NCBI GenBank assembly: GCA_902559415.1
Contig: CACEHW010000003.1
Coordinates: forward strand, 1 to 61,239
DNA from: an uncultured Fidelibacterota bacterium
GTDB lineage: Bacteria > Fidelibacterota > Marinisomatia > Marinisomatales > UBA1611
Reading direction: 5' to 3'
DNA: 61,239 nt
This document shows, in pieces, positions 29,245 to 32,759 of the stretch (position 1 is its first letter; each line of letters opens with the position of its first letter). Under the pieces are notes generated by a model. The model was given only the letters and a program-made list of their open reading frames with translations, searched no databases and was not told where the DNA came from. The position numbers and the translations under genes are program-made.

Positions 29245-30444
29245 TTACTCCTCAATCATTTCAAGGGCTTTTTTTACTCTGTCCATACCCTTTTGAATTA
29301 TTTTTCTGTTTGTTGCATATGAAAATCTTATGTGTTCAGAAGAGCCAAATCCATCTCCTGGAACAGTTACAACCTGTACAGCGTCGAGAATATACTCTGA
29401 AATATCAAAAGTATCTTTCAATAATTTACCGTTCGCTTTTCGATTTAAATATGAACTAAAATCAGGAAAAACATAAAAAGCACCATTTGGTATAGCGCAC
29501 TTTACTCCAGGAAGGTTATTTAAAAGTCTCACAATTAAATCTCTTCTTTGTAAAAAAGACCTTTTCATATCCTCAACACAATTTTGATCTCCAAGTAATG
29601 CTTCAATACTTGCTTTTTGCCCAATAGAATTTGCGCATGAAGTAGCCTGCCCCTGAATCTTAGACATTGCTTTGATTATATTTTTGGGACCTGCAGCATA
29701 GCCTATTCTCCAACCTGTCATAGCATAGGTTTTTGATAAGCTCATACATGTTAAAACAGTGGCACCAATATTATGAACCTGATTTAATTTTTCTGCACTA
29801 GTAAAATCACCATCATAAACTAACCTCTCATAACACTCATCGGAAATAACAACCCATTGATTTTCTTTGGCTATTTTCAATAATCTTACAATAGCCTCAT
29901 TTCTCCACACACCTCCAGTAGGGTTTGATGGTGAATTAATTATAACACCCTTTATAGTAGAGTTGATTTTTGATTCTAAATCATCAAAATTTGGCTCAAA
30001 ATTACTTTCAGAAAGAGTATCTACTAGAACAGGATTAGCTTCTGCCATTTTCACAAACTCTGGGAAGGAGACCCAGTAAGGAGAGAAGACTACTACACTG
30101 TCGTCTGGATCAAATATAGCCTGACAAGCATTATATAAACTTTGTTTTTCTCCATTTGAAACAAGAATACTAGAAGGATCATAAGAAATCTTATTTTCCC
30201 TTTCTAATTTTTCACAAATTGCTTCCCTAAGCTCAATCATTCCTGGACCAGCAGTATATTTTGTATAACCTTGATCCAAAGCCTCTTTTGCTGCATCTCG
30301 AATATGTTTTGGAGTATTAAAATCAGGCTCGCCTACAGAAAAGTTTATAACATCAACCCCTCTTGACCTCATATCAGCTGCTTTTGTTGCCATCTGTAAA
30401 GTAAAAGATGGGTTGATGTTATTTACTCTTTGCGCTATACTCAA
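29245..30444 (-). CDS. aspC: PLP-dependent aminotransferase class I/II (aspartate aminotransferase-like)
   Basis: GEPDF.TP, NSPSNPTG, SDECY, SKTYAMTGWRIGY, PNGAFY. Confidence 0.9.
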   Translation of the reverse strand: MSIAQRVNNINPSFTLQMATKAADMRSRGVDVINFSVGEPDFNTPKHIRDAAKEALDQGYTKYTAGPGMIELREAICEKLERENKISYDPSSILVSNGEKQSLYNACQAIFDPDDSVVVFSPYWVSFPEFVKMAEANPVLVDTLSESNFEPNFDDLESKINSTIKGVIINSPSNPTGGVWRNEAIVRLLKIAKENQWVVISDECYERLVYDGDFTSAEKLNQVHNIGATVLTCMSLSKTYAMTGWRIGYAAGPKNIIKAMSKIQGQATSCANSIGQKASIEALLGDQNCVEDMKRSFLQRRDLIVRLLNNLPGVKCAIPNGAFYVFPDFSSYLNRKANGKLLKDTFDISEYILDAVQVVTVPGDGFGSSEHIRFSYATNRKIIQKGMDRVKKALEMIEE

Positions 30445-31400
30445 AACTTATGTTGCTTTTTATGATACTCTTCCGAGTTAAACCGAGAATCATCATCAAT
30501 ATCAGCTTCTTTTTTATTAAAATTATTACCTTTCCCCTTAGAAATTCCTCGTGGAGAAGGATTACCATTATTTGAGAATCTTTTTTTCTTGCCTTTATAT
30601 TTTTTTTTCTTCCTTCTTTTATTAATTACAGGAGAATCATTAATAGTGACAAATGAAAGGAATTTATCAGAAGTATTAATTTCTTCTTGGACATAATCTT
30701 CATCAGAATCCTGAAACTCTAAATTACTTATATGATTTAAACTAAAAATAGAGCCATATCCCCTTGTGATACCATTCCCAAACCCAATATAGCTGGGCAA
30801 CATAAAATTAGTTTTAAATTCAGCATTAAATGATCTCCATCCATTTTCATCATGTTTATTAGGCTTAATGTCCTGAACTTCAACTTTTGTATATATTTTA
30901 GAATCAATATTCAAACCCAACTCTTTCGACAAAAATAATAAGTTTTGGCCAAGTAGTTTGTTCAAAAATAAGATTTTCTCTTCATCTACTAGATTTTTGT
31001 ACTTCCTGTTGGTTCCAGCATTTAAAGCAACCCAAGGTGTTATGAATTTATATCTTAGCAGTTTATCAGCCATCATAACCGCATCATTGTTTTGCTCTGT
31101 TTCAACCTCTTCAATTTTTAAAGTAATATCACCAAAATTAAAAGAATCTAAATTTTTTATTAATGCTTGTACTGGCTCTACTCCCTCATTTATACCAACA
31201 ATATATATTTGTTCATTTAATATTTTAACCTGAACTCGAGGATAAAGATATTTACTTCTTAACCTGCCATCAAGAAAAGGGATTATTTTTTCATCAGGGA
31301 ACAGCTTCATAAAAACACCTTTCACTTGATAGGGGGTTTTTATTACAGGCTTGTCAGAAATCAAGCGAGCAGTGATAGACTCAGATATAATTGCTTCCAT
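30441..31400 (-). CDS. Stand-alone Cas6b-like RAMP protein with charged C-terminal extension
   Basis: YLYPRVQVK, IVGINEG, YKFITPWVALN, FKTNFMLPSYIGFGNGITRGYG. The last matches the Cas6 G-loop GhG-x5-GhG with R in the spacer. Confidence 0.82.
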   Translation of the reverse strand: MEAIISESITARLISDKPVIKTPYQVKGVFMKLFPDEKIIPFLDGRLRSKYLYPRVQVKILNEQIYIVGINEGVEPVQALIKNLDSFNFGDITLKIEEVETEQNNDAVMMADKLLRYKFITPWVALNAGTNRKYKNLVDEEKILFLNKLLGQNLLFLSKELGLNIDSKIYTKVEVQDIKPNKHDENGWRSFNAEFKTNFMLPSYIGFGNGITRGYGSIFSLNHISNLEFQDSDEDYVQEEINTSDKFLSFVTINDSPVINKRRKKKKYKGKKKRFSNNGNPSPRGISKGKGNNFNKKEADIDDDSRFNSEEYHKKQHKF

Positions 31401-31431
31401 TAGTTATATTAATAATAAATACTAAAAATCT

Positions 31432-32682
31432 TTACTGACTCATAGTATCCAAAAATTCATTATTAGATTTAGTTCTCTTTATTCTATCAATTAAAAATTG
31501 AATAGCTTCATCAACTTTCATATCATTTACTAGTTTTCTGAGAATCCACATCCGGCCTAATTCTTTTCGACTAAGTAGTAATTCTTCTTTTCTAGTACCT
31601 GATTTTATAATGTCAAAAGCAGGATAAATCCTTCTGTCGCTTAAATGCCTATCCAAGGCAAGCTCCATATTTCCCGTACCTTTAAATTCTTCAAAAATAA
31701 CTTCGTCTGCTCTACTACCTGTATCCACTAATGCAGTTGCAATAATCGTTAAACTACCACCTTCTTCAGTATTTCTAGCAGCACCTAAAAATTGTTTTGG
31801 TTTTTTTAATGCATTAAAGTCGACTCCTCCAGACAAAATTTTACCGCTGTGTGGGATAACAGCATTATGTGCTCTCCCTAACCTAGTTATACTATCTAAA
31901 AGAATCACAACGTCATCACCAAATTCAACCATCCTCTTTGCTTTTTGAAGAACCATATCTGAAACAGATACATGTCTCTCTGGCGGCTCGTCAAATGTAG
32001 AACTTACAACCTCAGCATCAACATTTCGTTTCATGTCAGTGACTTCTTCAGGCCTTTCATCAATTAACAAAACTATTCTTTTTGTATCAGGATGATTTTT
32101 ACTTATCGCATTTGCAATTTTTTGCATTAAAACAGTCTTACCTGTTTTTGGCTGGGCAACAATAAGTGCTCTTTGACCCATACCTATTGGTGAGACTAAA
32201 TCCATAATTCTCATAGATATGTTTTTTTCATCTGTTTCTAAAACAAATCTTTTTTCAGGGTATAATGGAGTAAAATTTTCAAAAAGAATACAATCCTTTA
32301 ACTTTTCAACAGGCTGATCATTAACTAATTCGACTCTCAATAAAGCATAAAACCTCTCTTTTGCTTTAGGCGGCCTAATTTGTCCAGAAACCTTATGCCC
32401 GGTCTTCAACCTAAATCTTTTAATCTGAGAAGGACTAACATAAATATCATCTGGACCAGGCATGTAGTTAAAATCAGGTGACCTTAAAAAGCCATATCCA
32501 TCATGCATAACCTCTAAAATACCCTTTGCAAAAACTGATCCATCTTTTTCTGCCTGAGCTTCTAATATTTTTACTGTGAGCTCTTGCTTATTTAAACCAG
32601 AAATATCATCTGATATTTTTAGTGATTTTGCTAACTCTGCCAGCTCCTGAATACGTAAAGCCTGTAACTCGCTTAAATCCAT
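31432..32682 (-). CDS. rho: Transcription termination factor Rho
   Basis: [45 protein letters not shown]; 416 aa with no N-terminal insertion. Confidence 0.99.
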
Positions 32683-32719
32683 AAATAATTCCCTAATAAT
32701 TCATTAAAATTAGTATGTT

Positions 32720-32745
32720 AAAACTCTACCGGGGATTGTGGTAGA
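32720..32745 (-). promoter_or_regulatory. Hairpin in the folC-rho intergenic region (rho leader)
   Basis: Minus strand TCTACC-ACAATCCCC-GGTAGA followed by GTTTTAA. Confidence 0.45.
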
Positions 32746-32759
32746 TAATATAAATTACA

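Follow-up and report, generated by a model that had tools for sequence, protein, structure and literature searches.

A Cas6b-like protein without catalytic histidines is inherited together with rho in the Fidelibacterota

What does a protein of the Cas6b family do directly behind the gene of the termination factor Rho, with no CRISPR system beside it? The question is raised by a 61,239-nt stretch of contig CACEHW010000003.1, here called the window, from the assembly GCA_902559415.1 of an uncultured Fidelibacterota (Marinimicrobia) bacterium. A preliminary description of the window had pointed to an orphan Cas6b-like gene embedded in a rho-aspC-rpmE2 operon and had proposed a domesticated housekeeping factor. 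We followed the gene through the phylum and found vertical inheritance together with rho; most of the genomes concerned have no detectable cas genes. The motifs on which the description was based (YPRVQVK, YKFITPWVALN, NFMLPSYIG and GFGNGITRGYG) are all present in the translation, and the two junctions it reported are exact in the sequence. Between the end of the rho stop codon at 31432 and the ATG of the cas6b-like gene at 31400 lies a spacer of 31 nt. At the 3' end (...AAG TTT TGA) the stop codon overlaps the TTG start codon of aspC, so that the overlap reads TTGA.

The encoded protein belongs to the Cas6b family. Both Pfam domains were matched above their curated cut-offs, Cas6b_C (PF17262) with 9.4e-27 and 93.9 bits (cut-off 39.4) at residues 111-218 and Cas6b_N (PF17955) with 3.9e-11 and 43.4 bits (cut-off 25) at residues 17-103. 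In PADLOC the window protein matched Cas6 (1.2e-43) and Cas6b (4.9e-41), and an NCBIfam search with it gave no match. The sole solved relative that a sequence search recovered is the Cas6b of Methanococcus maripaludis (4z7k; phmmer E 2.1e-26, residues 25-219). An AlphaFold2 model built with 37 orthologs has a predicted local distance difference test score (pLDDT) above 90 over residues 1-220, a mean of 80.7 and a predicted template modelling score (pTM) of 0.74. The best Foldseek matches of this model are again Cas6b structures (4z7k/4z7l; 4z7k_A with E 1.5e-16 and TMt 0.84), followed by type IV Cas6/Csf5 (7xfz_H, 8rfj_M, 6h9h_A) and other Cas6 structures. With two tandem ferredoxin-like RNA recognition motif (RRM) domains and a C-terminal G-rich loop the protein has the architecture of the family, and the fold of the repeat-associated mysterious proteins (RAMPs) is present in the AlphaFold2/Foldseek comparison.

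Across the phylum rho is the partner that never changes. The order rho, cas6b-like gene, aspC, rpmE2, DUF1385 and prfA was found in 24/24 genome loci that reach upstream, a 25th locus (L025) being cut at the contig end, and aspC lies downstream in all 25. A further 15 non-canonical matches came from other families and classes, with 24-42% identity to the window protein. All of them stand directly behind rho on the same strand, and 11 are followed by aspC. The remaining four have other downstream genes (UbiA and DnaE in L035, LspA in L039) with the rho pair kept, and in L035-L037 and L039 the genes on both sides of the pair differ. The operon setting proposed earlier thus holds for rho, the invariant partner, but not for the whole block, in which aspC can be replaced. 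The spacer between rho and the cas6b-like gene measures 8-93 nt in all 41 loci, and the window Rho is 64-97% identical to the Rho proteins of 36 other loci. The wider neighbourhood is a mixture of housekeeping genes (amiC, murI, folC, rho, aspC, rpmE2, DUF1385 and prfA). In a promoter and terminator scan the counts equalled those of shuffled sequences and no site was seen between rho and the cas6b-like gene. One study's RNA libraries contain contigs that span the rho/cas6b-like junction (X1, X5) and, in X1, also the cas6b-like/aspC junction; being contigs only, from relatives that are 3-9% divergent and with DNA carry-over possible, they are a weak hint of co-transcription.

Because the assembly that contains the window is incomplete (1.2 Mb in 83 contigs, 65% complete), a sample of 201 genomes of the phylum was used. 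In this sample 69 of 100 Cas6b_C matches lie 1419-1843 nt behind a Rho RNA-binding domain on the same strand, 19 do not and 12 could not be placed; two of the latter (G186 and G050) proved to be rho-linked when their loci were inspected. These 100 matches come from 102 Cas6b_C rows, of which two second fragments were dropped, and they were compared with 150 Rho domain positions among the matches listed.

The rho-linked proteins also share a common descent. A maximum-likelihood tree was computed by quick search, with the Shimodaira-Hasegawa-like approximate likelihood ratio test (SH-aLRT) as its sole measure of support. It unites the 40 rho-linked sequences in a single clade (SH-aLRT 99), to which the five canonical Cas6b included from the phylum do not belong, and the branching inside this clade follows order, class and family. 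Both kinds of Cas6b occur together in some genomes (e.g. G011 and G185). Synteny with rho and congruence of the tree with taxonomy, both named as checks in the preliminary description, were therefore borne out across the lineage. The reading frame is intact in all 40 loci. The ratio of nonsynonymous to synonymous substitutions (dN/dS) in the core of the protein is 0.05-0.18 (8 pairs with dS <1) compared with 0.00-0.05 for Rho, and the rho-linked protein is under purifying selection.

Of 1.84 billion representatives searched with a profile of the rho-linked proteins, 1641 matched at E<=1e-3. The best ~24 of them belong to the rho-linked type and are followed by canonical Cas6b. The named sources of the rho-linked type are Marinimicrobia, Neomarinimicrobiota or Fidelibacterota, with two exceptions among metagenome-assembled genomes (MAGs). 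One carries the label 'Lentisphaeria' and sits inside a Marinimicrobia cluster; the other is a Bacteroidota MAG, whose protein is distinct and His-less. This Bacteroidota protein (P0220/P0270, 225 aa) is a Cas6b-family member without H-x-H (LLYFH) and with a G-x-G-N loop, and a search for the genomic context of P0270 in metagenome contigs found nothing. In one 90%-identity cluster there is a protein from the cultured Fidelibacter multiformis, which is annotated only as 'CRISPR-associated endonuclease Cas6', and in the ESM Atlas cluster (2884 members) Fidelibacterota are the commonest source.

The absence of a CRISPR context, as reported for the window, was confirmed and extended. Among 54 non-overlapping open reading frames (ORFs) of at least 100 aa in the window no other cas gene was detected (PADLOC, E<=1e-8), Rfam gave 0 matches at the gathering threshold, and the entire 1.2-Mb assembly yielded no regularly spaced repeats. 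The same 65%-complete assembly has no matches to Cas1, RAMPs or Cas5d and a single match to Cas6b_C. In the 201-genome sample Cas6b_C was found in 92 genomes, Cas1 in 52, RAMPs in 30 and Cas5d in 28. The three markers are all missing from 55 of the 69 rho-linked genomes, and 14 carry cas genes; the gene is thus found mostly in genomes without detected cas genes and not patchily in CRISPR-bearing genomes only. In the order of the window, outside family f3, all 50 genomes (each at least 91% complete) have the gene; 41 of these lack all three markers and nine have Cas1, including three with RAMPs and three with Cas5d. A full scan of the closed genome G186 (2.14 Mb), in which the gene is present, found no CRISPR-like array. 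The array detector recovered arrays in 3/5 positive-control loci (L042, L044 and L045). The sole array candidate in G186 (C1, ~221,590-221,870) was rejected as a ~280-nt degenerate coding tandem repeat with a 12-nt unit of the type TTTACAGT, which is not CRISPR.

Cas6b proteins that are not rho-linked are found in another setting. For these Cas6b_C matches, 13 of 17 cases are in cas-bearing genomes, several of them on the Cas1 contig, and two of the remaining four resemble contig breaks. Genomes with CRISPR-cas systems hold a second, canonical Cas6b with H-x-H beside the cas genes (e.g. G011, G015, G023 and G185). One locus (L042 4930-5994, on contig C28 of G007) has a canonical array with a 37-nt repeat (GTTTCAATCC...) about 1.1 kb from an H-x-H Cas6b, and its contig also carries Cas1 and Cas5. 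The phylum therefore has ordinary CRISPR-cas loci with Cas6b in addition to the rho-linked paralog. Taken with the tree and the synteny, this makes it very probable that the rho-linked gene is a domesticated, non-CRISPR Cas6b that is co-inherited with rho. Early in the evolution of the Marinimicrobia/Fidelibacterota, a Cas6b protein with two RRM (RAMP) domains would have been taken over from a CRISPR system, and its gene would since have become fixed as the second one of the rho operon.

The rho-linked protein has the scaffold of Cas6b and a changed active site. P41 and L43 of the window protein align with H38 and H40 of M. maripaludis Cas6b, both catalytic and required (PMC3479195), so that the H-x-H pair of a functional Cas6b is missing. 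A histidine at either catalytic column was found in 0/40 rho-linked sequences, while IHNH is conserved in the CRISPR-linked, canonical Cas6b of the phylum (5/5 with H-x-H). Among the best 150 of the 1641 representatives, 99 carry H-x-H together with a G-x-G-K loop and about 36 (20 complete ones plus fragments) have a G-x-G-N loop without H-x-H. Other canonical residues are changed as well. N130 has a frequency of 0.99 in canonical and 0.25 in rho-linked proteins, S156 of 0.87 and 0, K184 of 0.95 and 0.05, and Y58 of 0.86 and 0.05, respectively; position 209 in the loop is K in 0.90 of the canonical and N in 0.90 of the rho-linked proteins, where column 209 helped to define the canonical set and the columns N130, S156, K184 and Y58 did not define the groups. 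The G-loop, which had been called perfect, is in this respect not canonical, as N209 stands where 90% of canonical Cas6b have K.

On the other hand, 11 alignment columns are invariant across the phylum-deep rho-linked set. The structural motif residues Y117, F119, W123, N153, F191, F195, P202, G208, G214 and G216 are retained, and so are Y53, P54, Q57 and K59, with Y or F at position 51. Two near-invariant basic residues, R55 and R48, have been added near the former active-site segment. The architecture with which Cas6b binds RNA (fold, TPW motif and G-rich loop) thus appears to have been kept. A kept scaffold together with the loss of His-x-His and of other canonical residues points most likely to binding of host RNA with altered specificity and not to cutting of CRISPR RNA (crRNA). 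Such binding would most likely be specific for a sequence or a structure. Neither the loss of the histidine pair nor the lineage-specific tail described below, with its conserved terminal peptide, had been recorded in the preliminary description.

In the order of the window the orthologs are 319-350 aa long, compared with 218-263 aa for the tail-less proteins of other classes; the ortholog of F. multiformis is likewise tail-less. The additional tail is mostly disordered: acidic residues come first, followed by a brief beta segment predicted with confidence (~239-251), K/R-rich runs and a terminal peptide. In the AlphaFold2 model the pLDDT is <50 for residues 274-319 and 91 for the block 241-250, a predicted strand that is added to the core. 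The peptide NSEEYHKKQH is unchanged in 24/26 tail-bearing sequences (L004 has NTEEY and L041 has NSPEF), whereas the tail around it diverges. The dN/dS of the tail is 0.12-0.38 (7 pairs), and the peptide was not found elsewhere in a six-frame translation of the genome of the window. Judged from these sequences, the pattern is that of a putative short docking motif on a disordered linker, and NSEEYHKKQH is a candidate for docking to a conserved partner, possibly Rho itself. Rho columns that are specific to tail-bearing genomes are N31, V37, K108, Y112, T305, F356 and M378, which may be phylogenetic signal alone. A complex prediction for Rho and the Cas6b-like protein scored 0.01 and 0.00, with the mark at 0.32, and counts neither for nor against binding.

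The explanation that joins these layers is an exapted, probably non-cleaving, RNA-binding derivative of Cas6b that is co-expressed with Rho. Taken as a whole, we give it an even chance. Since no neighbour other than rho is constant and the spacer always measures 8-93 nt, joint production with Rho is probable, and the protein may, as a weaker suggestion, act in the same process. That it works with Rho is a tentative proposal, and we lean slightly against it. If it does, its most plausible role would be to mark particular transcripts for Rho-dependent termination or to shield them from it. A more specific idea is speculative and in our view unlikely: a catalytically dead Cas6b could serve as a specificity subunit of Rho, recognize an RNA element in host or invader transcripts and recruit Rho or hold it off via NSEEYHKKQH. 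If true, this would amount to sequence-programmed termination or antitermination that is encoded in the rho operon itself.

Several observations weigh against the co-expressed RNA-binding derivative. The adjacency to rho could be mere operon inheritance. The loss of the histidines is no proof of a loss of cleavage, as judged by analogy with the Sulfolobus solfataricus Cas6 (Sso1437), which lacks the catalytic histidine and is still active (PMC3652601). Arrays were scanned in the assembly of the window and in one closed relative, and elsewhere their absence rests on three cas marker families. The spacers between rho and the cas6b-like gene share no conserved element beyond AGGTG/GGAG, which resembles a ribosome-binding site. 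The 37-nt repeat of L042 has no match in the genome of the window at <=3 mismatches and none of at least 24/37. No fusion of Rho and Cas6b was found among longer proteins, a blank that is weak evidence. As a fusion candidate P0303 (693 aa) was rejected: about 165 Cas6b-like residues, 65% identical to those of the window protein, are joined in mid-domain to a RecD2-type helicase of other composition. Because it is one sequence on one 5-kb contig, it is most likely an assembly chimera. A C-rich patch in the rho leader was likewise rejected as a Cas6b-specific site, because it is kept in the f3 locus L051, which lacks the gene.

The gene is also dispensable. It was not found in f3 (0/13), f15 (0/6) and f28 (0/9), nor in most genomes of f22, f24 and f26. 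Family f3 comprises the streamlined genomes of ~1 Mb in the order of the window. In four f3/f15 loci aspC follows rho directly with a gap of 0-40 nt, and in an f28 locus a convergent gene follows rho. Such clean absences mean that the gene is not essential and that Rho works without it, which likewise counts against the co-expressed derivative. The 'core' or 'housekeeping' character assigned to the gene earlier therefore goes too far: it is conserved with rho in many lineages and cleanly absent from f3, f15 and f28.

Two side observations concern rho in these genomes. In the f3 Rho proteins (L050/G024 and L051/G071) an insertion of 13-25 residues, rich in K/D/N/E, separates the N-terminal helix bundle from the RNA-binding domain; Rho frames measure 440-462 aa in this family and 416-445 aa elsewhere in the order, and N31, V37 and Y112 of Rho, invariant in the 26 tail-bearing genomes, are changed in f3. 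As a single evolutionary event these changes could be compensation or coincidence. The rho leader (window 32683-32759; L002-L026), which follows the folC stop codon, has a conserved TGTAAT(A/T)T element, a hairpin of variable sequence and a C-rich patch of the TCCCC type in an otherwise AT-rich genome. It is plausibly a promoter together with a putative autoregulatory site of Rho (rut-like).

Instead of being catalytically dead, the protein could be an active endoribonuclease with non-histidine catalysis that processes a host RNA, for example the rho-operon transcript or a stable RNA, and then, like Cas6 enzymes, remains attached to the product. An active Cas6 without the histidine exists (PMC3652601), the Cas6 fold is intact, and Y53, P54, Q57 and K59 are kept with R55 and R48 gained nearby. 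However, both histidines are replaced in every member, and canonical K184, K209, S156 and N130 have been replaced as well. In addition, a conserved element resembling a cleavage site was not seen in the intergenic regions of the operon. Cleavage of this kind is unlikely, though we would take it seriously.

A second alternative questions the partner. The position behind rho would then be inherited operon structure, and the protein would have a chaperone-like, RNA-binding or other role that is functionally unconnected to Rho. The mixture of housekeeping genes in the neighbourhood fits this, as does the loss of the gene in lineages where rho has stayed unchanged in place. It accounts less well for the fact that rho never changes even where the flanking genes differ (L035-L037 and L039) and that the spacer always stays within 8-93 nt, and we regard it as rather improbable.

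The known function of the family suggests, third, a crRNA maturase that acts in trans on arrays or effectors elsewhere in the genome. Fourteen of the 69 rho-linked genomes have cas genes, and CRISPR arrays are often missing from MAGs. This reading is nevertheless largely refuted and has very little probability left, as the other 55 rho-linked genomes are free of all three markers, no array was found in the closed genome, CRISPR-cas genomes have a second canonical Cas6b with H-x-H, and the catalytic pair is lost in the rho-linked protein. Finally, a functionless, decaying remnant of a lost CRISPR system, which the missing CRISPR context and the lost catalytic residues might suggest, is refuted by selection and conservation (40 intact frames, a core dN/dS of 0.05-0.18, 11 invariant columns, and a single clade that follows taxonomy down to 24% identity).

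The features of the locus are collected in Table 1. The composition had been described as similar to that of the neighbours. This is correct in so far as the gene is not island-like, but its GC content (0.28-0.31) is slightly lower than that of rho and aspC (0.32-0.37), largely because of the K/N-rich tail.

Table 1. Coordinates of the cas6b-like gene, its parts and its direct neighbours in the window.
Feature	Position	Strand	Remarks
Cas6b-like gene	30441..31400	-	intact ORF of 319 aa, ended by TGA; matched in Pfam, PADLOC and PDB
rho	31432..32682	-	416 aa, upstream partner; Rho_RNA_bind 9.2e-34 at 32305-32526
rho/cas6b-like spacer	31401..31431	.	31 nt; no terminator-like site seen
aspC-type aminotransferase	29245..30444	-	TTG start overlapping the cas6b-like TGA; usual, not invariant, downstream neighbour
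Cas6b_N, N-terminal RRM/ferredoxin-like domain	31092..31352	-	residues 17-103; AlphaFold2 pLDDT >90
P41-F42-L43, at the position of catalytic H38-N39-H40 of M. maripaludis Cas6b	31272..31280	-	HMMER alignment to 4z7k
Cas6b_C, C-terminal RRM domain	30747..31070	-	residues 111-218; Pfam
G-rich loop GFGNGITRGYG	30753..30785	-	residues 206-216; G208, G214 and G216 invariant; N209 for canonical K
C-terminal tail	30444..30743	-	residues 220-319; only in orthologs of the order of the window
C-terminal peptide FNSEEYHKKQH, candidate docking motif	30450..30482	-	residues 307-317, near-invariant

A search for dispersed repeats in the genome of the window returned a single striking family, which could not be connected to the cas6b-like gene. 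On contig C10 (~6.2-27.1 kb; L052, L053) there are 16 same-strand copies (<=2 mismatches) of the palindromic core CCCCACGAATGTGGGG beside an A/T run. Their spacing is irregular (240-3300 nt), with one copy after most of the small, unrelated genes on the same strand, which encode GNAT acetyltransferases, a hemerythrin, methyltransferases, AIM24, a cyclase and proteins sorted by the type IX secretion system (T9SS). The set looks like an integron-like cassette array or a series of identical intrinsic terminators; a tyrosine recombinase was not found in the 65%-complete genome. In G186 the same kind of search gave thousands of repeated 16-mers and was uninformative.

That these proteins belong to Cas6 is already known in the sense that databases tag them as Cas6b-domain proteins or as 'Cas6'. 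A description of a rho-linked or Marinimicrobia Cas6 was not found in the literature, where a bare 'solo cas6' listing in the supplementary tables of CRISPR classifications is possible. The passages on Cas6 and on 'stand-alone' genes in two reviews by Koonin and Makarova list no such case, and in the paper that describes F. multiformis the words CRISPR, Cas6 and Rho are all absent.

The recruitment of Cas proteins for work other than defence is rare and instructive. A stand-alone Cas6 that travels with rho would be a clear case of a RAMP module for RNA recognition that is re-used for host RNA biology. Should it cooperate with Rho, the protein would represent a novel type of Rho accessory factor, and an instance in nature of a Cas6-type protein that serves as a programmable RNA handle. 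The lineage concerned, SAR406, is among the most abundant uncultured marine lineages, and the proposal is testable because the 90%-identity cluster includes the protein of the cultured F. multiformis. For annotation it follows that a gene called 'Cas6' in this phylum is no sign of a CRISPR system.

Protein modulators of Rho include NusG, Rof/YaeO, Psu of phage P4 and Hfq. To our knowledge none of the Rho modulators is a RAMP protein, and none is related to the window protein in sequence or fold. If the link to Rho is real, the Cas6b-like protein would be another accessory modulator of this kind, unusual in being encoded beside rho.

The closest known relative is the M. maripaludis Cas6b (4z7k/4z7l), a type I-B endoribonuclease for crRNA, which has in common with the window protein the family, the fold, the motifs YP.xQxK, Y.F.TPW..LN and F.G.F..N...P, N153 and the G-rich loop. 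However, it has H38/H40 where the window protein has P41/L43, and the latter also lacks canonical N130, S156, K184 and the loop residue K209. Unlike the gene of M. maripaludis Cas6b, the window gene is fixed behind rho without a CRISPR array or cas neighbours, and its orthologs in the same order carry an added tail of ~100 aa. The S. solfataricus Sso1437 resembles the rho-linked protein in combining a Cas6 fold with the absence of the 'essential' active-site histidine, but it is CRISPR-associated, belongs to another Cas6 subfamily and cleaves repeats via a network of basic residues (PMC3652601). Finally, type IV Csf5/Cas6 and a Streptomyces module of cas5-6-7-8 with a STAND NTPase, derived from type I-E (PMC8730458), show, as here, a Cas6 fold outside classical adaptive immunity. 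These Cas6 proteins stay in multi-Cas effector modules on plasmids or in defence islands, whereas the Cas6 of the window is found by itself in a housekeeping operon on the chromosome, and its descent agrees with the species tree.

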